A DNA stretch of 64,000 bases from an uncultured delta proteobacterium (lineage in GTDB: Bacteria > Desulfobacterota > Desulfobacteria > Desulfobacterales > JAFDCJ01). The stretch lies in the NCBI GenBank assembly GCA_963769935.1, contig CAVYNY010000009.1, positions 224,001-288,000 of the forward strand. The letters are read 5' to 3'. This document shows, in pieces, positions 43,325 to 55,198 of this stretch. How positions within the stretch are numbered: the stretch's first letter is position 1; each line of letters begins with the position of its first letter. Under the pieces are notes generated by a model. That model saw only the letters and a program-made list of their open reading frames with translations. It was not told where the DNA came from and made no database searches. The position numbers were made by a program, and so were the translations under genes.

Positions 43325-44251
43325 TCATTCCACCTTGGGTCGCGGCAGTACCTGGGCGAGCTCGGCAATTTCCGGTACCCGGTGCTCCCACTCGATGGCC
43401 ATCAGATGTACACCGGCGATGCCCTTCATTTCTTTGAACTCTTCGATCTGCTCACAGGCGATTTTGATGCCTTCGTCGGCAGCCTTGCCTTTGCCGGCGG
43501 CCTGCAGCCTTTTAATGATGGCTTCGGGTACGTCCATGCCGGGAACCTTGGATTGCATGTATCTGGCCATGCCGACGCTTTTCATCGGTGTCACACCGGC
43601 CAGGATATAAATTTTTTCGGTCAGTCCCATGTCGTTGGCTTGCTTGACCCATTCCCGGAATTTTTCCATGTTGTAGATGCACTGGGTCTGGATAAAATCC
43701 GTTCCGGCCTCGACTTTTTTTGCCAGGCGATGCACGCGCCAGCGAAAGGGCTCGGCAAAAGGATTGGCGGCCGCCCCGATAAAAATTTTAGGGGGTTCGA
43801 CAATGTCTTCGCCGCTCAAAAACTTGCCCTCATCCCGCATGCGCTTGACCATCTGGATCAACTGCATGGAATCAAGGTCAAAGACGCTTTTGGCGGTCGG
43901 ATGATCCCCAAACTGCTGGTGGTCGCCTGAAAGACACAGCATGTTGCGGATACCATGGGCATAGGCCCCCAGGATATCACTTTGCATGGCCAAACGGTTG
44001 CGATCCCGGCACACCATCTGGTAGTTGGGCTCCAGGCCTTCCTGCACCAGGATAAGTGAAGCCGCCCAGCTTGACATGCGCACGACGGAAGTCTGGTTAT
44101 CTGTGATGTTGACCGAATCCACGTTTCCCTTTAAATAGGAAGCCTTTTTCCGAACCTCGTCCGCGCTGGTTCCGCGCGGCGGTCCTAATTCACCGGTAAA
44201 TGCAAAATGTCCCGCATTTAAGACCTTTTCCAGATTACTGCCTGATTTCAT
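43325..44251 (-). CDS. metF: Methylenetetrahydrofolate reductase (MetF, acetogen-type), copy 1
   Basis: TGELGPPRG, NITDNQ, CRDRNRLAMQSDILGA, LCLSGDH and KKVEAGTDFIQTQ motifs. Confidence 0.95.
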   Translation of the reverse strand: MKSGSNLEKVLNAGHFAFTGELGPPRGTSADEVRKKASYLKGNVDSVNITDNQTSVVRMSSWAASLILVQEGLEPNYQMVCRDRNRLAMQSDILGAYAHGIRNMLCLSGDHQQFGDHPTAKSVFDLDSMQLIQMVKRMRDEGKFLSGEDIVEPPKIFIGAAANPFAEPFRWRVHRLAKKVEAGTDFIQTQCIYNMEKFREWVKQANDMGLTEKIYILAGVTPMKSVGMARYMQSKVPGMDVPEAIIKRLQAAGKGKAADEGIKIACEQIEEFKEMKGIAGVHLMAIEWEHRVPEIAELAQVLPRPKVE

Positions 44252-44279: not shown

Positions 44280-44961
44280 TTATTTTGCGGCCGCCTTTTC
44301 CGGTTTCTTATAGCCGGGTTGAATCAAGGTGCGCGGCACCTGATTTTGCCAATCAACCGCCGGAGTAATTTTTAAAATACAGTCCAGCCGGCCCTGCCTT
44401 TCCAGACGCTCATAGATCATATACCAGGCGCAAGGCTGATCCGGGTTGATTTCACAGCTGCCCTGGTTGGTTCCGCCGCACGGTCCGTTGTAGAGGCCCT
44501 TGGCGCACATGGTGACCGGACAGATCCCGGCGGTCTGCCCCAACACGCAACTGCTGCAGGAGCGGCACCTTTCTTCATACCACCCCACTGCCTGGTTGAC
44601 CGCCAGACCGCAGGTGTCGACGGCGGGATAAACCGGAACATCCGGGAATCTCTCCGCCAGAAACTGAATACCGACGCCGCAGGCCATCGAGATGACGGCT
44701 TCATAGTCTTTGACCAGATCATCCAGCTCGGCCAGATATTCGCGGTCGCACTGTCTTTCAACCGTTTTGGCGCCGACCTCGATGGGGTTGTCTTTCAGCC
44801 TGCGGGCCATATCCAATTCGGCATTCAAGACATCGACTTCTTTCTCGCCGCCTGCCAGGCAGACGGCGACACAGGTTCCGCATCCGACGGTCAGAACCTT
44901 CTTGTAGGGCGTTAAGCAGACCCATTATCTCTTCAAAAGGTTTTCTTTTGGCAACTATCAT
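44280..44961 (-). CDS. metV: MetV (MTHFR Fe-S/Zn subunit), +1 insertion at ~44908
   Basis: MIVAKRKPFEEI..., then shifted YKKVLTVGCGTCVAVCLAGGEKEV, ERQCD, MACGVG, CRSCSSC...CPVTMCAKGLYNGPCGG...CAW; span is 3n+1. Confidence 0.9.
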
Positions 44962-45040: not shown

Positions 45041-46360
45041 CTACATGGCCATTTCGGGATGAAAGACCAAGACGTCTTTAAGATCGTCTCCCAGATAGGT
45101 CCTTTCGTTCGGTCCCAGTATTCCCATTGAGAGGCAGAGGAGGGTCCAGATGTGGACCACTGAATAACCTCCGCCGAAATGCTCGCTGAGCTCATGAATC
45201 TGAGCGTGGCAGTTATGGCAGCCGGCAACGCAGTAGCCCGCGCCGGTTTTCTGGATCTGCTCATCCTTGAGCCGGCCGAATTGCAGACGCTGCTCTTTGA
45301 AACCGGCCTGGAGGAATCCGCCGCCGCCGCCGCAACAATAATTGTTGGACCTGTTGGGCTCCATATCGATAAAATTTTCTTCGCCTACAATGGATTTGAT
45401 CACAAATCGCAAATCCTCGGCAATCGGGTCCCCATAGGTCTTGCGCACGATCTGACAAGGGTCCTGAACCGTAAATTTGACCTTCAAATCCTTGTTCCAG
45501 TCGGAATTGACCTTCAGCTTGCCCTCGCGAATCCATTTGGCATAGTATTCATAGATGTTCTTGACGACAAAGTTATGCTCGATGTTGAATTTTTTCAGTC
45601 CTGCCAGGACTGAGAAGGTGACGTGCCCTCACTCGGTGTTGAGATAGACCTTGCAGCCGAGATCATCGGCCTGTTTGGCCGTGGTGCGGGTGATGTGCTC
45701 CCAGGCCTCATTGTCGGAAAGAAACATGCAGTAGTTCTCGCCGCCCCATCCTTTGCTGCCGTATGTCCAGTCGACCCCGGCCGCATGCAGGATCTTCCAG
45801 AGCGGAACCATTTCATCGGGTTCGGTGACCGGCTCCCTGGAATTCTGGTTCAAAAAGAATTCAGCGCCCTGCTTATCGATGGGAGCCTCCATGTCTTTAA
45901 ACTCGGGCTGGGCCTCGCGGTATTCCTCCAGAACGTCTTCCACCACGAATTGAAAATCCTCCGGGCTCGCTCCCATGGCGCTGCAGCTGTCATTTTTCAG
46001 CGCCATGTCGCAGGAGCCCAGGATGCCCTTGGGACGCTCCTCCCGGGGGCGCATGCCGCGGACATTGTAAACCAGCTGCGGTATATCAATTTTCATGGGA
46101 CAAACATAAATGCAGCGCTGGCACATGGTGCACATCCAGGGCCAGTCCGACTTCAGAATTTCCTCGTCCATCCCGAGCGCCGCCATGCGCAGGAATTTGC
46201 GGGGGTCCAGCCCTTCCAGACCCGTCGCCGGGCAGCCGGAAGAACAAGCCCCGCAGGTGAGGCACAAGTTCAGATTGCCGCCGTCGGGCAGCACCTTTTT
46301 GACCGCATCCAATAATGTGCTTTTTTTCTTGGCTCCCAGCACTAGGATATCCTCTTTCAT
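45041..46360 (-). CDS. HdrD-like Fe-S/CCG-domain oxidoreductase, predicted selenoprotein (Sec244), 439 aa
   Basis: Two CxxCxxCxxxCP motifs; in-frame TGA at 45631-45629 in YLNTE-U-GH; frame continues without stops into QDPC, CCGGGGG and GCHNC. Confidence 0.9.
45595..45613 (-). promoter_or_regulatory. SECIS-like hairpin (HdrD-like gene)
   Basis: UCAGUCCU-GGC-AGGACUGA perfect 8-bp stem starting at +16 after the UGA. Confidence 0.85.
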
Positions 46361-46806
46361 AATTCTTTTCCTCTTTTATCCGTTTTGGGTATTTTTCTAT
46401 GGTTTAAAGGGTTCGGTCCCAGGGACCGGATCAGATCCGCCATCTCTTTGGCATAGGCTGCAAAAGTAGGGCCTTCCCCGGATGATAGATTGTACATCCG
46501 GACCCGCTCGCCTTCCAGACCGATTTCTTCGAGCAGCATCTTTACGTGCGCCACCCGCTCCCTGGCTCTAAAATTGCCTTCATTATAATGACAGGTGCCT
46601 TCCAGACACCCGACCACATACACACCGTCGGCACCCTGCTGGATGGCCCGCAGCAAGTGCCTCACATCCACTTTCCCGGTACACGGGATTCTGATAATTT
46701 TTACGTTCGAAGGGTATTGAAGTCGCATGGAACCTGCCAGGTCCGCGGCTGAATACCCTCAATAATCACAGCAAAAAGCTATGATGTTGGGTTCAAATTC
46801 GGTCAT
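46357..46806 (-). CDS. mvhD: MvhD/FrhD-family [2Fe-2S] subunit, predicted selenoprotein (Sec16), 149 aa
   Basis: ATG 46806 after GGAGG: MTEFEPNIIAFCCDY-U-GYSAADLAGSMRLQYP (TGA 46761-46759); then PCTGKVD and GADGVYVVGCLEGTCHY. Confidence 0.93.
46730..46744 (-). promoter_or_regulatory. SECIS-like hairpin (mvhD)
   Basis: GGACCU-GGC-AGGUUC stem starting at +15 after the UGA. Confidence 0.75.
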
Positions 46807-46808
46807 CA

Positions 46809-49800
46809 CTATCCTCCTGCCAGCAAGGCATCAATTTTACACATAATCTGCTCATCTTCGTAAAAACTCAGGCTGATCGCCTCCCGCGGGCAAACGCTGG
46901 CACATATGCCGCAGCCATGGCAAATGGCATCGTCGATTTCAACAACGCCTTCATCGGAATTGAAGGCCGGCACCTGAAAAGGACACGACCTGACACAGGT
47001 CAGACATTTCACGCAGTGTTCCGCATCGACCTTGGCGGTAATGGCCGAAAGCTTGATTTCCGGTTTGGCCAGGAAGGTTGCGGCCCGCGAGGCCGCGGCC
47101 TGGGCCTGGGCGATGGATTCTGAAATCAGCTTGGGGCCGTGGGCGGTGCCGCACAAAAATATACCATCTCCCGGCATGTCAACCGGACGCAGTTTGACAT
47201 GGGCTTCAATGAAAAATCCCTCCGGGTTGCGGTTCAGCTTCATGATGCGGCTCAATTCTTCCGTGTCTTCGGCCACCACGCCGGCGCTCAACGCCAGCAG
47301 ATCGGCCCGGATCGCCAGATTGCGCTGCAGGATGTGATCCTTGACGGACACCGTCAAGCCTTCCGAATCCTCCATGACCTGCGGCGCAGCTTCCGGGGTA
47401 AATCGAATAAAAATAACCCCTAGCTGCCTGGCCTCCTTGTAGTAATCCTCCAGCAGTCCGTAGGTTCGCATATCGCGGTACAGAATATAAATCTGGGCCT
47501 CCGGATTGAGTTTTTTAATCGCCAGGGCGTTTTTGACGGCCGACTGGCAGCAGATGCGCGAACAATTCTCATTTTTTTCGTTGCGCGATCCCACGCACTG
47601 AATCATCACGACGCTGGCCAGATCCCCAGCGCCCTTTTCCGCAAGCCGATCGCTCAATTCCAGCTGGGTGACCACCCGTTCGCTTTCCGCATAAAGATAT
47701 TCCTGGGGCCGGTACTCCCGGGCGCCGGTAGCCACGATAATCACCCCGTGATTGATGCTGATTTCCTTAGCGTCGGCCCCCACGGCCAGATGGGTTGAAA
47801 AATTCCCCTTGTAGCCGCCGAAGGCGGTAATCCCGGCCTCGGTTAAGACTTCAATCTTGGCGTGCGCCTGCACCCCGGCGATGAGTTCCTGCAGATAGGC
47901 ACGGATATCAGCGCCTTCGATGGTGTGATGCAGACGGGCGGCCAGGCCGCCGAGCTGCTTTTCCTTTTCCACCAGCACGACGTCAAAACCCTGATTACCC
48001 AGACCCAGGGCGGCGTTCATCCCCGCGATGCCGCCGCCGATCACCAGCGCCCGCTGTTGCACGGGAATGACCTTCTCCCGGAGCGGCTTCAATGCCGCCG
48101 CGCGGGCCACCGACATCCGCACCAGATCCTTGGCCTTGGTGGTCGCCTCCGGCTTGGTCTGGGAATGAACCCAGGAATCCTGATTGCGGATATTGGCCAT
48201 TTCAAAAAGGTATTTGTTCAACCCGCAGGCTTCCAGGGTTTCCATGAACATCGGTTCATGGGTCTTGGGACTGCAGGAGGCCACGACCACCCGATTCAGC
48301 TGATGCTCCAGGATTTTTTCCTTTATTTTATCCTGGGTATCCTGGCTGCAGGTAAAAAGATTCTCATCCGCATAGACCACATGGGGCAGCCCCTCGGCAT
48401 AAGCCCTGACGGACGGCACATCGACCACCCCGCCGATGTTGATGCCGCAGTTGCAGACAAATACACCGATGCGCGGCGCTTGTTCGGAAACGTCAACTTC
48501 TTCCGGAACCTCAACCTTTTCGGTTTCCGTGCCCCGGGCTGCGGCCAGATGGCCGCCGGCCGCACAGGCGGCGGCACTGGCTTCGGTCACGGCGCCCGGA
48601 ATATCTTTGGGCCCCTGAAATAACCCGCAGGTATAAATGCCGGGACGCGATGTGGACACCGGTGCAAACGGGCGGGTGGCAACAAAATTGTATTTGTTCA
48701 GTTCGATGCCCAGGCGCCGGGCCAGTTCGACCGAACTTTGGGCAATGCCCAACCCTACCGAAAGCACCACCATGCTGAAAGTTTCTTCCGCCTGGCTGCC
48801 GTCCTCATCCACGTACTTGACCAGCAGGTCGCCGGTTTCAGGAATTTCGGAAATGGTATGAATGCGGGATTTGGAGAACCGCACGCCCTCTTTGTCTTTG
48901 GCCCTCAGGTAGTACTTCTCGTAGTCCTTGCCGAAGGTCCGGATATCCATGTTAAAAATAACACAGTCCAGCTCGCCGTGGGCGTGTTCCTTGGCAATCA
49001 TGGCTTCTTTGATCGCATACATGCAGCAGACCGAGGAGCAGTAACCGTTGCCGCAGCGATTGGTATCCCGCGACCCGACACATTGCAGCCAGGCGATTTT
49101 TTTGGGCGCTTCCCGGTCCAGCGGCCGCATCAAATGACCGAAATACGGTCCCGAAGCGCTTAGAATTCTCTCGAATTCCTCGCTGGTGACCACGTTGGCG
49201 TATTTGCCGTAGCCGAGAAAATCAAGGCCGGAAGGATCATAGCCCTCGCTGCCGGCGGATAGAACGACCGAGCCGACCCTGAGGCTGGTTTCGCGTTGGG
49301 TGTCATCGTAGGATACGGCCTTGGCCAGACACATATTTTCACACAGACCGCAGCCGATGCAAATCTCCGGATCAATGGCAAATGCCAGCGGAACGGCCTG
49401 GGGATATTCGATATAGGTCGCCCGCCGGTCATCCAGTCCCTTGTTATAGGAATTGACGGCCGTCACCGGACAGTGCCGCGCGCAATCGCCGCATCCGGTG
49501 CATTTGGCCACATCGATATAGCGGGGATGATTGGTCAGAGTGACCGTGAAATCGCCGGGCTCACCCTCGACGGCGGTTACCTCGCTGTTGGTAATGATTT
49601 CGATATTCAAGTGCCGGCCGACCTCGACCAGTTTGGGCGAGATCACTCACATGGCACAGTCGTTGGTGGGAAACGTCTTGTCCAGCCGCGCCATCATGCC
49701 GCCGATCGTAGGCGACTTTTCGACCAGATACACCTTGTATTCCGAGTTGGCCAGGTCCAGAGCCGCCTGCATGCCGGCGATCCCGGCCCCCACCACCATG

Positions 49801-49835
49801 ACCGAACCGCTTGTTATTCCTTTTTCCGATCCCAT
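46809..49835 (-). CDS. hdrA: Large heterodisulfide reductase subunit A-like flavoprotein, predicted selenoprotein (Sec63), 1008 aa
   Basis: GAGIAG...[25 protein letters not shown] (TGA 49649-49647); ferredoxin motifs, QCVGSR...CSSVCCM, second GGGIAG FAD motif, C-terminal 2x[4Fe-4S]. Confidence 0.95.
49614..49631 (-). promoter_or_regulatory. SECIS-like hairpin (hdrA)
   Basis: CUGGUCG-AGGU-CGGCCGG starting at +16; identical in both hdrA paralogs. Confidence 0.85.
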
Positions 49836-49844
49836 GAACACTCC

Positions 49845-50594
49845 TTATAATACCGAAAAAACAGGTTTGCTGTCTTCCATTGCCTCGAAGGCAACCCTGT
49901 TTGTCTTTTCCAGATCCGCGAGCAGATAAGACACCCGTTTGAGCGCCAGCCCCGTGCTCCGGCTGATTTCCCTGACGGATCGGTTTCCCGTTTTAACCGC
50001 TGCGTATATGAGATTCTTGTGATACTCCCTCTCCAGAACCGAATCCATTATGGTTTCATAAGAGTCCGTATCCCATTTGCGCCCGTAAACATCACCCCGG
50101 GCGGTTATTTTCAGTTCTTTGCTCACCAGCCAGCGCAGATTCTCGGCACTGACGGTCATGAGGGCTGCTTCCAACTGCAGGGCGAAGGCCTGGACATCCA
50201 GAGCGCCCTGCTCCCTGACGGATTCGGTGACCTCGGTGGCGATCTGAGCAAAACGCTGGGCCTCGGCCGATGAAACCCACGCCAGATGAAGCCGGTCCCG
50301 CCCGATTCCAGTCAGATCCAGCAGGTTGCGGGTTAATCGGATCTTTTTGTCGGCGTATACATTACCCTCCAGGTAATGGCAGTCACCGATGTGTCAGCCG
50401 GCCACCAGCACGCCGTCGGCGCCCTCCCGCAATGCATTGACAATGAAGACGGGGTCAACCCGTCCCGAGCACATGACCCGGATGGTTCTCAGGTTGCTGG
50501 GATACTGCAACCGGGAAACACCGGCCAGATCCGCACCGGCGTATGCACACCAGTTGCACAGAAACGCAACAATTTTAGGTTCAAAATCGGACAT
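49845..50594 (-). CDS. mvhD: MvhD-family protein with C-terminal extension (winged-HTH-like), predicted selenoprotein (Sec67), 249 aa
   Basis: [39 protein letters not shown] (TGA 50396-50394), WVSSAE; frame continues to 49845 with [24 protein letters not shown]. Confidence 0.92.
50360..50378 (-). promoter_or_regulatory. SECIS-like hairpin (long mvhD)
   Basis: CAUUACC-UGGAG-GGUAAUG perfect 7-bp stem starting at +16. Confidence 0.85.
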
Positions 50595-50842: not shown

Positions 50843-53800
50843 CTATCCCGCCTTTACCGAACACACCGCCGCCATGATCTGCTGATCCCGGAAATGCAGC
50901 ATATCGATGGCCTTTTTGGGGCAGCTGGACGCACACAGGCCGCAGCCTTTGCAGGAAGCCGATATGTTCCGGGCGCGGTAGCCTTTGCCCTCAACCTCTT
51001 CCAGTTCGATGGCCCCGAACGGGCACACTTCGACGCACAAACCGCAGCCGATGCATTGGTCGGCATCGACTTTTGAAACCAGGGGCGAAACCGAAATGGC
51101 GGATTTGGCCAGAACCGTCGCGGCGCGGCCGGCAGCGGCCATGGCCTGGGAAATCGATTCATCAATGGGTTTGGGATAATGTGCCAAACCACAGACAAAC
51201 AGTCCGTCGGAGGCAAAATCCACCGGCCTCAGCTTGGCATGTGCCTCCATAAAGAAATTATCCGCATTGACCGGCAGCTTGTAAAAAGCCGCCAGCCGGC
51301 TGTTTTCCGTCGGAACAATGGCCGTTGCCAGGTTGATCACATCGGCTTTAATCAGCACCTTCCGTTGCAAAATCGGATCGAAAACCCGCACTTCGAGTCC
51401 GCCGTCCGTCTCGGACACAGTCGGTTTGTTGTCCAGGTTGTAGCGGATAAAAATAACGCCTTTGGCCCGGGCTTCTTTGTAAAGGGCCTCCCGTTCCCCG
51501 AACGTGCGGATGTCGCGATGCAAAATATATACGTTCGCATCGGGGTGCCGGTCCTTGACGGCAATGGCCTGGGAAACGGATGTCGTACAGCATATTCTGG
51601 AACAGTAGGGCCGTTGCTCGTCGCGGGAGCCCACACACTGGATGAACACAACATTGGAAGCGTCATTCAGCAGTTCAGGATGATGGTCGAGTTCATGCCA
51701 GCGCAGCACCCTTGGATTTTGGCCGTATAGATATTCAGCCGTAGCGGAAGCCTCCGCCCCCGTGGCAATCACCACTGCTCCGTGCCGGACGACGCGGGTC
51801 AAATTGCCGGATGCCACCTGGGTTTCAAAATTACCCACGAATCCCTTGGCATTGGCCACCTCGGCATTGAGGAATACTTCAACATCCGGGTGATTTTGCA
51901 CGTCGGCGATCAAATCGTCCAAAAACGTCCGAACGTCCCGACCGCGCCAGGTGGCGGTAATATCCCGTGCGGCGCCGCCCAGTTCGGCTGAACGTTCGAT
52001 AAGAACCGCCGGAAAGCCCTGGTCGGCAAGACTGAGAGCGGCGGTCATTCCGGCGACACCGCCGCCGATGACCAGCGCCGTCTTGTTGACGTCCACCGAA
52101 ATATCCGGAATCGGCTCCAGCAGCGCCGCGCGGGCCGCCGCCATCCGCACGAGATCTTTGGCTTTGGCGGTGGCGGCGTCATGATCGCCGGAATGCACCC
52201 AGGTGCACTGGTTGCGGATATTGGCCATGTCGAACAAATAGGCATTTACGCCGGCATTGCGGATGGTCTCCTGGAACAGCGGTTCGTGGGTTCGGGGGGT
52301 GCAGGCGGCCACCACAATCCGATTTAATTTTTGTTTACGAATAATTTCCACCATTTTCTCCTGCGTATCCTGACTGCAGGAAAAAAGGTTTTCTTCCGCG
52401 TGAACCACATAAGGCAGGCCGGCGGCATATTCCGTAATCGCCGGAACATCGGCGATCCCGCCGATATTGATCCCGCAGTTGCAGACAAAGACCCCGATCC
52501 GCGGCGGCTCACCGCTGACGTCCTTTTCGGCGGGAAACTGCTTTTCCTTGACAAGGGTTCCGCGCGCCGACGACAGCGCCAGGCCGGCACTGCAGGCGGC
52601 GGCACTGGCCTCCATCACGGACTGGGGAATGTCCTTGCAGCCCTGGATCACACCGGCAACGTAAATCCCGGGCCGTGAGGTGGCCACCGGGCGCACATCG
52701 TCGGTTTTCACGAAATTATAGTGATTGAGCTCAATTCCCAGGTTTTGGGCCACCTCGACCGCCGAATCGGCGGGCTCCATGCCCACGGACAGCACGACCA
52801 TGTCAAAATCTTCCGTTATTCTCCGGCCGTCATCGGTGACGTACTCCAGGCTCAGGGTACCGCTCTCATCAGCCTGGGTGATGGTGTGGACCTTGGAACA
52901 AATAAAGCGGACGCCGCCGGCCTTAGCCCGGTCGTAATAGCGCTCGAAATCCTTGCCGTGGGTCCGCATATCCATATAAAATATGCTTCCCTGAAATCCG
53001 GCCGCCAGATGCTCCCCGGCGATGACCGCCTCCTTGATCGCATACATACAGCAAACTGAAGAACAGTACTCATTGTCGCATTTGTTCTGATCGCGGGAGC
53101 CGACACACTGCAGCCAGGCGATTTTAGCGGGCGGCCTGCCGTCGGAAGGCCGTAGCACGTGGCCGCCCGTCGGCCCGCCGGCCGAGAGAATTCTTTCAAA
53201 TTCCATACTGGTCACGACGTTGGCAAGTCGGGCGTACTGATAATTGTCGAAGGCGGAAGGATCGAAGGTTTTAAAACCGGCGGTAACGATGACGGACCCG
53301 ACATTGAGGGAAATTTCCTCCTCTTTGTCATCAAAATTAACGGCACCGGTCGGGCAGATTTTTTGGCACGCGCCGCATTTGCCTTTTTTAAGAAAAATAC
53401 ACCGGTCCGGATCGATCACATATTTAAGGGGCACGGCCTGGGCATAGGGGACATAAATAGCCTTGCGCTTGCTGATCCCCTTGTTGAATTCATCGGCGGT
53501 CTTGGCCGGACATTTTTCAGCACAGGCGCCGCAGGCAATGCACTTGTCCAAATCTACGTAGCGGGGCGACCTCTTTATCTTAGCGGTGAAATTGCCCTCT
53601 TCCCCCTGGATGGCGGTAAGTTTTGAAAGCGTGAGAAGTTCGATGTTCAGATGCCGGCCGACCTCGACCAGTTTGGGCGAAATAATTCACATTGAACAGT
53701 CGTTGGTCGGAAAGGTCTTGTCCAGTTGCGCCATGGCACCGCCGATGGCCGCCGATTCCTCGACCAGGTATACGTAGTAGCCGGAATCAGCCAGGTCCAG

Positions 53801-53875
53801 GGCTGCCTGCATCCCGCTGATGCCGCCGCCGAGAACCAGCACCGATCCGATTGTGACCGCATTGTCCTTTTTCAT
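50843..53875 (-). CDS. hdrA: Large heterodisulfide reductase subunit A-like flavoprotein, predicted selenoprotein (Sec63), 1010 aa
   Basis: GGGISG...[25 protein letters not shown] (TGA 53689-53687); open frame into ORF 50843..53551; same domain order as 46809..49835. Confidence 0.95.
53654..53671 (-). promoter_or_regulatory. SECIS-like hairpin (hdrA)
   Basis: CUGGUCG-AGGU-CGGCCGG starting at +16 after the UGA. Confidence 0.85.
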
Positions 53876-54265
53876 GGTATTTATCCCGTCCTCAAAAATT
53901 ATTCCGGCTGTTGCCGTTTAAATGCGCTTTTGGTTAAAAATTAAAAAGAGTACTTTTTATCAAAATATACAAAGGATGTCAAGGAAAACCGTGTCTTATT
54001 AAACGAATGTAATCCAAATAATATCCAAAAATTAATAATATGCAGCCGATTCGGCTTGTTAAACCATACCAATTTAGTCATAAAAAAACAATTGATATTA
54101 ATAATCCAAACGTATATAAATTTTACGTGATTTGAATTAAAATTTTCATTTCAATTCCAAAGAAGAAGCGCTTTGATCGGCAAAGCACCATCATCGTTCC
54201 AACGGTGCTGCTGCTCAAGTCCCTGGGGAGGGCGCGTTGCATCGCCCGCCAAAGGATGTGCATCA

Positions 54266-55198
54266 ATGAGTGTAAAGACACCGAGCAAACTTGAAAAGAT
54301 TCTGAGTGAAGGCCATTTGGCCGTGACTTCCGAATGCGGACCTCCCCGGGGCAGCGATCCGGAGACAATCATCAAAAAAGCCGAGCTGATTAAAAACCAT
54401 GTGGACGCCATCAATATTACCGACAATCAAACGTCGGTCACTCGCCTGTGCAGCCTGGCCGCCTGTATCCGTTTGAAACTGCTGGGGCTCGAACCGGTTT
54501 TGCAGATGGTGACCCGCGACCGCAATCGCATCGCACTGCAAAGCGACATCCTGGGAGCCGCCTCGTTTGATATTCACAATATCCTGTGTCTGTCCGGCGA
54601 CCACCAGAGTTTCGGTGATTGCGCTCAGGGCCGGAATGTTCACGATATAGACTCCATGCAGCTGATTCAGACGGTGCGACATATGCGCGATGAGGGCAAA
54701 TTTCTCGGCGGCGACGAGATCAAACGGCCGCCGCAAATGTTTGTGGGGGCGGCCGCCAATCCGTTTGCCGATCCATTTGAAATCCGCGTTCCCCGGCTGG
54801 CCAAAAAAATCGCCGCCGGCGCGGAATTCATCCAGACCCAGTGTATTTACAACCTGGACAAATTTGAAGAATGGATGCGGCAGGTCCGCGACCGGGGTCT
54901 GCACGAAAAAGTTTACATTATGGCCGGACTGACTCCCATAAAGAATGTCGGCATGGCCAGGTACATGAAAAAGCGCGTACCCGGCATGGATGTGCCCGAT
55001 GAAATCGTGGACCGGCTGGCCGGCACGCCCAAAGAAAAGCAGGCTGAAGAGGGAATCAAAATTTGCATCGAATCCATTCAGCGCCTCAAAGAGGTGGAAG
55101 GTGTGTCCGGCTTTCATATCATGGCCATCGAATGGGAAGAAAAAGTGCCCGAAATAGTAGAAGCCGCCGGTCTCTATCCCCGGCTTAAGCTTGATTGA
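54266..55198 (+). CDS. metF: Methylenetetrahydrofolate reductase (MetF), copy 2
   Basis: TSECGPPRG, NITDNQ, TRDRNRIALQSDILGA, LCLSGDH and AGAEFIQTQ motifs; start MSVKTP after AAGGA. Confidence 0.95.
   Translation: MSVKTPSKLEKILSEGHLAVTSECGPPRGSDPETIIKKAELIKNHVDAINITDNQTSVTRLCSLAACIRLKLLGLEPVLQMVTRDRNRIALQSDILGAASFDIHNILCLSGDHQSFGDCAQGRNVHDIDSMQLIQTVRHMRDEGKFLGGDEIKRPPQMFVGAAANPFADPFEIRVPRLAKKIAAGAEFIQTQCIYNLDKFEEWMRQVRDRGLHEKVYIMAGLTPIKNVGMARYMKKRVPGMDVPDEIVDRLAGTPKEKQAEEGIKICIESIQRLKEVEGVSGFHIMAIEWEEKVPEIVEAAGLYPRLKLD

Follow-up and report, generated by a model that had tools for sequence, protein, structure and literature searches.

A predicted selenoprotein of the HdrD/DsrK type with selenocysteine at the position of the probable relay cysteine of DsrK: a candidate partner of DsrC

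We analyzed a 64 000-nucleotide stretch of DNA (hereafter, the window) from an uncultured delta proteobacterium and found that a minus-strand gene at positions 45041–46360 encodes an HdrD/DsrK-type iron–sulfur protein of 439 amino acids with one selenocysteine (Sec), as identified from its open reading frame (ORF), Pfam and NCBIfam matches and an AF2 model. The in-frame UGA almost certainly encodes this residue, Sec244 (U244), which aligns with Cys329 of DsrK, a cysteine reported as a likely sulfur relay. With a confidence that is only slightly above even, we propose that U244 works as a sulfur-relay residue next to the one non-cubane cluster that is predicted, probably on DsrC and with electrons likely supplied by HdrA-MvhD. 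Beyond the alignment of U244, we infer every step of this mechanism.

Domain architecture of the U244 protein

When TGA was translated as Sec, the minus-strand ORF from 46360 to 45041 comprised 439 codons with a single in-frame TGA. The initial annotation had described a 439-amino-acid read-through product with two ferredoxin motifs, and both were recovered in this translation. The two CxxCxxCxxxCP motifs (C33–C43 and C77–C87; 46100–46264, minus strand) are cubane [4Fe-4S] motifs of the HdrC type, as indicated by Pfam Fer4_8 and Fer4_17 and by HdrC chains as the best PDB sequence matches. Pfam placed the ferredoxin domains at residues 30–92 and found one CCG domain, at residues 297–388 (45197–45472, minus strand; 41.7 bits against a cut-off of 20.6). 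This second domain, previously described as intact, does contain DPC302, C342C343GGGGG and C381HNC384; four of its five cysteines were kept in 120/120 homologs, and C343 in 119/120.

The first CCG-like domain (approximately residues 166–280; 45521–45865, minus strand), delimited by column alignment and by the AF2 model, which aligns to HdrB from residue 166, is degenerate. The sequence WGGENYC (residues 205–211) is present as had been noted, but the view that GGENYC stands in the place of CCG required correction: the canonical CCG aligns to G206-G207-E208, and C211 is therefore not a surviving CCG cysteine. C211 (45730–45728) and C117 (46012–46010) were invariant in 120/120 close homologs, a conservation limited to the close subclade; among the 20 distant Sec forms, all with U244, 18 lack the two residues. 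Judging from these alignments, the two residues could possibly provide a resolving cysteine or a disulfide.

The best NCBIfam matches of the protein were TmcB, HmcF and DsrK, all far under their cut-offs (170 bits versus 735, 170 versus 750 and 122 versus 400, respectively). A fold search with the AF2 model (pLDDT 87.9, pTM 0.88) returned EtfD as the top match (Z 26.6, rmsd 2.8, 368 aligned residues), and the model aligned to HdrB chains with Z values of 21.6–22.5. The PDB sequence and fold match lists contained no structure of DsrK, TmcB or HmcF, and this absence is uninformative with regard to fold. Taken together, the Pfam, NCBIfam and AF2 fold matches indicate that the U244 protein is, by prediction, a soluble HdrC+HdrB-like fusion with no membrane part.

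Predicted selenocysteine at the position of DsrK Cys329

The U244 codon (45631–45629, minus strand) lies within NTE-U-GH (residues 241–246), and translation, alignment and a codon survey identified U244 of TE-U-GH as the equivalent of DsrK Cys329. The first CCG-like domain no longer has its first cysteine (N173 region), its last cysteine or either cysteine of the CCG (G206-G207-E208), and it keeps only U244 and H246 of its site residues; the other cluster-ligand positions are now N173, G206/G207 and H246/V247.

We mapped the columns by MAFFT alignment with paralogs and by hhalign against DsrK, and U244 and H246 were placed on C331 and H333 of the DsrK encoded in the same genome (hhalign probability 98.9). 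In that DsrK, C331, H333, F260, H212 and E294 are spaced exactly as C329, H331, F258, H210 and E292 of A. fulgidus. A profile alignment between the first and second CCG-like domains was uninformative (probability 0.2, low diversity). Other DsrK residues are replaced in the U244 protein (H210 by A128, F258 by V178, D500 by C384 and E292 by G206). We also considered a mapping of E208 to DsrK E292, which was ruled out, given that the alignments put E292 at G206; the invariant E208 lies two residues from G206, and distant family members have E at position 206.

The study by Barbosa et al. (bioRxiv 10.1101/2023.08.03.551783; PMC10861901) describes the T/GECGH cysteine of DsrK, TmcB and HmcF as probably catalytic. 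According to a 2026 cryo-EM preprint (10.64898/2026.08.25.746951), DsrK has a single non-cubane cluster, and Cys329 is non-ligating, apparently persulfidated and likely a sulfur relay; it is situated between DsrC Cys114 and the cluster, with His331 as a possible proton donor. Because U244 occupies the position of this relay cysteine, it likely handles sulfur rather than holds iron. The link to DsrK and TmcB drawn in the initial annotation was accordingly borne out by the alignment of U244 with the T/GECGH cysteine. Two roles had been suggested for Sec. Action at the disulfide-reducing site is supported, since U244 corresponds to a probable relay cysteine that binds no iron in DsrK, whereas ligation of the non-cubane cluster is disfavored, since the other ligands are lost and Cys329 is reported as non-ligating. 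A literature search that covered few subscription journals found no report tying the Sec family to DsrK Cys329, non-cubane clusters or DsrC.

Association with dsrA and predicted binding of DsrC

Genomes with dsrA account for nearly all occurrences of the family. Among 401 genomes of the phylum, dsrA was present in 107 of the 115 with a family match (E ≤ 1e-60), and a family match was found in only 8 of the 198 genomes without dsrA, a co-occurrence that is confounded by kinship and selenium use. Four of these eight matched genomes are 66–95% complete. In the 45 genomes with close orthologs, a DsrC-family gene was detected in 44 and dsrA over the cut-off in 41. At three loci picked for their proximity to dsr genes, the gene was located in an hdrA-mvhD-flx-type cluster near dsrAB (L175 and L176) or 2.3 kb from dsrC (L177).

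We modeled a complex between the natural Cys form from L177, which is 59% identical to the window protein, and its neighboring DsrC. The complex score was 0.67 (0.67, 0.69 and 0.67 in separate runs), compared with 0.00 for the best of three controls; among solved complexes, 116 of 157 attain the mark for this score, as do 2 of 215 mismatched pairs. These counts apply only approximately, since the alignments were user-supplied; the DsrC alignment was shallow (23 rows). At least 97% of the contacts agreed among runs, and the partner pLDDT was at least 87. In the modeled complex, the DsrC tail lies at the Sec-equivalent residue, and the contact surface comprises the residues that correspond to U244 and H246, those that correspond to DsrK F258 and H210, and DsrC residues 100–105. 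Conservation at the 37 interface positions was 0.92, compared with an average of 0.81 (1/10000 random sets); the window protein is identical at 24 of the 37, and the DsrC of the window genome at 21 of 21. The scoring also passes close cousins of a true partner, and likeness to DsrK:DsrC may drive the score; the PDB sequence search returned no DsrK sequence. As a prediction that concerns binding and not activity, the model supports the binding of DsrC by the Cys-form homolog. HdrD-like proteins acting on DsrC have already been postulated in two papers (PMC6470260 and PMC4759654).

The same Sec relay might serve a substrate other than DsrC, namely another thiol or persulfide carrier, either a protein of the TusE/TusA/DsrE type or a small-molecule disulfide. 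We consider this unlikely, although several observations give it weight: the DsrC-contacting residues of DsrK are not conserved, the genome contains two further DsrC/TusE-family matches, two small ORFs without a Pfam match follow the gene at L175, neighborhoods vary widely, and the complex tool has the tolerance described above. However, the strong restriction to dsrA genomes favors DsrC, as does the modeled interface, which is conserved and lies on the surface used in the DsrK-DsrC structure.

A proposed relay role for Sec244

In the mechanism that we prefer, with DsrC as the substrate, the U244 protein would replace HdrB+HdrC, and electrons would pass from HdrA-MvhD through the two cubanes to the non-cubane cluster. 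DsrC's C-terminal arm would enter the pocket, where Se244 would take the DsrC sulfur as a selenenylsulfide or selenopersulfide and present it to the cluster. The cluster would then reduce the Se-bound sulfur, and H246 may pass protons. MetVF might couple the system to methyl/methylene-THF interconversion and the Wood-Ljungdahl pathway, which, as a suggestion from gene order alone, is the weakest of these steps. The source for the DsrK mechanism is a preprint. Against the model, the residues through which DsrK touches DsrC or adjusts its cluster (H210, F258, D500 and E292) are not kept, and EtfD, the best structural match, closes its cluster with a His at the H246 position.

In a more specific form, the family members would reduce DsrC-trisulfide as soluble, selenium-dependent enzymes that bypass DsrMKJOP in the cytoplasm, with Sec taking the part of the DsrK relay cysteine; we regard this as conceivable yet doubtful. 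If it were true, an HdrA-MvhD-MetVF complex would couple methyl-THF oxidation, as a step of complete acetyl-CoA oxidation, directly to sulfide release in Desulfobacterales, and this would be the first case of a catalytic selenocysteine in an enzyme that has a non-cubane cluster. The proposal bears on which soluble Hdr-like proteins reduce DsrC. For studies of the mechanism with one non-cubane cluster, the family would provide natural Cys variants and a soluble protein that can be followed through its selenium (75Se, 77Se, Se-EXAFS).

Sec244 could instead be a metal ligand, binding a non-standard cluster or ion together with H246, C211 and C117, or the open iron of the non-cubane cluster. The degenerate CCG domain of EtfD does hold a linear [3Fe-4S] cluster, C117 and C211 are invariant in the 120 close homologs, and the earlier DsrK paper raised cluster binding by the T/GECGH cysteine. 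This reading is weakened because 18 of the 20 distant Sec forms lack C117 and C211 yet keep U244, and because EtfD needs four cysteines in the domain, of which the first and both of the CCG motif are lost here; the cryo-EM preprint also describes DsrK Cys329 as a non-ligand. We accordingly judge it improbable.

Still less credible to us is a reading in which the protein conducts electrons or senses redox state within HdrA-MvhD complexes, where H246 would cap the non-cubane cluster as happens in EtfD and Sec would serve protection or regulation rather than turnover. Such a function would fit the position of EtfD as the top fold match, the correspondence by motif of EtfD C581-x-H583 to U244-x-H246, and the retention of all five cysteines of the intact motif. 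However, Sec or Cys is near-invariant across all subclades with at least 9–10 switches, which is the pattern of a catalytic redox residue, and the equivalent His of DsrK leaves the cluster open, according to the preprint. These changes were counted in a quick tree of 74 sequences, for which Cys-form and Sec-form rows were deliberately chosen and a quick search was used; the tree thus shows repeated switching and is silent on the ancestral state. Repeated Sec/Cys swaps at the residue proposed as the DsrK relay provide independent support for a catalytic, non-structural role.

Recoding of the UGA codon

Among 110 close loci, 107 carried TGA in the U column, and the remaining three carried TGC. 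We picked 20 distant TGA-bearing and 20 TGA-less loci from 150 listed matches; TGA was located at column 244 in all 20 of the former, and the latter had a Cys codon there in 19 cases and no Cys in one. Full-length database homologs are single genes and carry Cys in this column in 120/120 cases. Split homologs break at the same TGA, and under code 11 the UGA splits the gene calls of the close loci into two ORFs (80/80). Neither of the two outcomes that the initial annotation had named as refuting, homologs consistently present as two separate genes or without Cys in this column, was thus observed. Both Sec and Cys forms are present in several genomes.

Folding and conservation identified a SECIS-type hairpin with an 8-bp stem and a GGC loop inside the coding sequence (45595–45613, minus strand). 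It begins 15 nt past the UGA, with a stem of 7–8 bp and a fold z of –3.12, and none of 200 shuffled sequences was equally stable. Of the 2722 ORFs in the genome that end in TGA and encode at least 200 amino acids, 10 were followed by a hairpin of this geometry, with the U244 site among them, and the hairpin resembles the stem-loops after the MvhD Sec codons of the window. At least six of seven stem pairs and the loop G were kept in 107/107 TGA loci, with compensatory pairs at three positions, and the stem was kept in neither of the two Cys forms tested. The genome encodes Sec machinery consisting of tRNA-Sec, selA (in two frames in this assembly), selB and two selD genes. Both selD genes (G000:C20:157619–158545 and C7:116160–117080) contain an in-frame TGA themselves. 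The contigs of four public runs showed no letter other than TGA at codon 244, and the TGA is therefore not a sequencing error. The U244 gene is covered by RNA-library contigs, which carry no transcription level or strand, and a promoter scan found nothing above background (14 versus 11.3 in the shuffled background).

We give almost no credence to the view that the TGA is a genuine stop or results from misassembly, with the locus being a pseudogene or a pair of genes: although indel errors do occur in this assembly (metV and selA), the TGA is conserved at one column in 127 loci (107 + 20), full-length homologs carry Cys, the SECIS is kept only with TGA, and public contigs are unchanged.

Operon and genomic neighborhoods

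The gene order is hdrA-mvhD-hdrA-mvhD-U244 gene-metV-metF, all on one strand. The first hdrA encodes a flavoprotein of 1010 amino acids with Sec (50843–53875, minus strand; TGA 53689; ORF, Pfam), followed by an mvhD with a C-terminal extension and Sec (49845–50594, minus strand; TGA 50396; ORF, Pfam), another hdrA-type flavoprotein of 1010 amino acids with Sec (46809–49841, minus strand; TGA 49649; ORF, Pfam, NCBIfam) and, directly upstream of the U244 gene, an mvhD with Sec (46357–46809, minus strand; TGA 46761; ORF, Pfam). Together with the TGA at 45631, all five Sec sites that had been claimed were thus found. The ATG of the U244 gene overlaps the mvhD stop (ATGA). Downstream lie metV (44280–44961, minus strand; Pfam DUF5981), the frame of which is broken by a one-base insertion near 44910, and metF, encoding methylene-THF reductase (43325–44251, minus strand; Pfam MTHFR). 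The extra metV base is missing in contigs of three public runs (X1, X4 and X5), and the frameshift is therefore probably an assembly error.

A second metF (54173–55198, plus strand), identified by Pfam and sharing 60% identity with the other copy, is oriented divergently to the cluster; 14 of 80 related loci likewise have an additional metF-like gene next to the cluster. The two MvhD proteins of the window carry Sec at different positions. The C-terminal extension of the MvhD at 49845–50594 comprises approximately 115 amino acids, has no Pfam match and was seen in 12 of 80 related loci.

Among the 80 close loci, hdrA and mvhD were both found in 39, all of hdrA, mvhD, metV and metF in 28, and none of the four in 32; when only the 44 loci flanked on either side by 5 kb or more were considered, the corresponding numbers were 23, 19 and 16. 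Given the 32 loci with none of these genes nearby, HdrA is not an obligatory neighbor. Relatives without hdrA nearby (L060, L066, L072, L076–L078, L080, L082, L086–L088, L098, L101, L103, L107 and others) have neighbors that, from the appearance of their sequences, we take to be small proteins and ATPases like those of the ORP cluster, or proteins of the CGGC or CO-dehydrogenase-like type. A gene for a membrane heme subunit (DsrM/TmcC/HmcE) is not adjacent to the U244 gene, the neighbors of which are mvhD and metV. The dsrMK genes of this genome are on another contig, and an acetyl-CoA synthase is encoded.

Further observations concern the assembly and the paralogs of the U244 gene. The selA gene is split over two frames (G000:C22:678107–679262; L125), and two translation-GTPase loci (C22:721234–722131 and 736650–737823), which we infer to be probably EF-Tu, match in pieces, which suggests indel errors in the assembly. 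A distant paralog (L002, 1483–2709, minus strand; G000:C32:81963–83090) is 38% identical, has a TGA in this column as well (PE-U-GH) and lies after a gene of the HdrA/MvhD type. A close paralog (L003; G000:C41:1734–2582), with 81–83% identity, lacks residues 142–290 in frame, corresponding to the whole Sec-bearing domain. It is located on a 5.3-kb contig and adjoins an HdrA-like gene into which a receiver-like domain is inserted; the domain loss is either a real deletion or a misassembly.

Comparison with a known selenoprotein family and Hdr-like systems

The U244 protein belongs to the predicted 'Fe-S oxidoreductase (GlpC)' selenoprotein family. This family has been on record, UGH site included, since 2004–2006, and the novelty that the initial annotation implied for this Sec site is therefore not supported. 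The D. vulgaris member (Zhang et al. 2006; PMC1794560, supplement file 4) contains TE-U-GH with matching flanking motifs, and, as compared by eye, the sequences reported for D. vulgaris, D. psychrophila and S. fumaroxidans have U in the same column. A 2026 review (PMC13188914) lists the family with the motif UGH and PTHR43551 as 'predicted with high confidence', credits it to Kryukov and Gladyshev (2004) and describes the functions as largely uncharacterized. The Olavius symbiont paper (PMC1976440) and the D. autotrophicum genome paper (PMC2702500) list two more members and hdrD4 as a selenoprotein, respectively. Of the features of the family, the UGH motif, the U column, Cys homologs, a bacterial SECIS and Sec machinery were found here. 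Because the selenoprotein was already catalogued, spotting U244 alters annotation only. What could matter is the function, in that this uncharacterized family is widespread among sulfate reducers; the value added here is a specific, testable function for it.

The window protein shares its architecture and U site with the GlpC-like family, in which neighboring hdrA and mvhD/frhD are also selenoproteins. However, the family has frhG-frhA as neighbors, whereas the window operon runs into metV-metF and contains two hdrA-mvhD pairs.

DsrK, TmcB and HmcF have in common with the U244 protein two cubanes, one CCG motif and the T/GECGH residue (C329/H331 corresponding to U244/H246). In contrast, the U244 protein scores far below the cut-offs of these families, has Sec for Cys and has no membrane partner gene; compared with DsrK, it has Cys384 for Asp500, and H210, F258 and E292 are not kept at the aligned columns. 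Genes for a true DsrK, a TmcB-like and an HmcF-like protein, labeled from motifs and neighbors, are located elsewhere in the genome.

An HdrC+HdrB fusion beside hdrA/mvhD is shared with the soluble HdrD of D. autotrophicum (PMC2702500) and the Hdr/Flox system of Syntrophobacter (PMC5947623), and in the latter cluster HdrD is described as replacing HdrBC. Relatives of the U244 gene occur in a Syntrophobacter-like flx-type layout, whereas the window has metVF in place of the flx genes. The best whole-chain fold match, mycobacterial EtfD (PDB 9OJN; PMC13083937), is described with a heme-b membrane domain and four cysteines for a [3Fe-4S] cluster of linear form; the U244 protein is without both.

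The fold is also shared with methanogen HdrBC and HdrD, as indicated by the HdrB fold matches and by the HdrC chains as best sequence matches. CoM-S-S-CoB is not known from this organism. Methanogen HdrB and HdrD contain two five-Cys CCG motifs, whereas the U244 protein contains only one by Pfam, and of the ligand cysteine positions in its first domain only that of U244 is kept.
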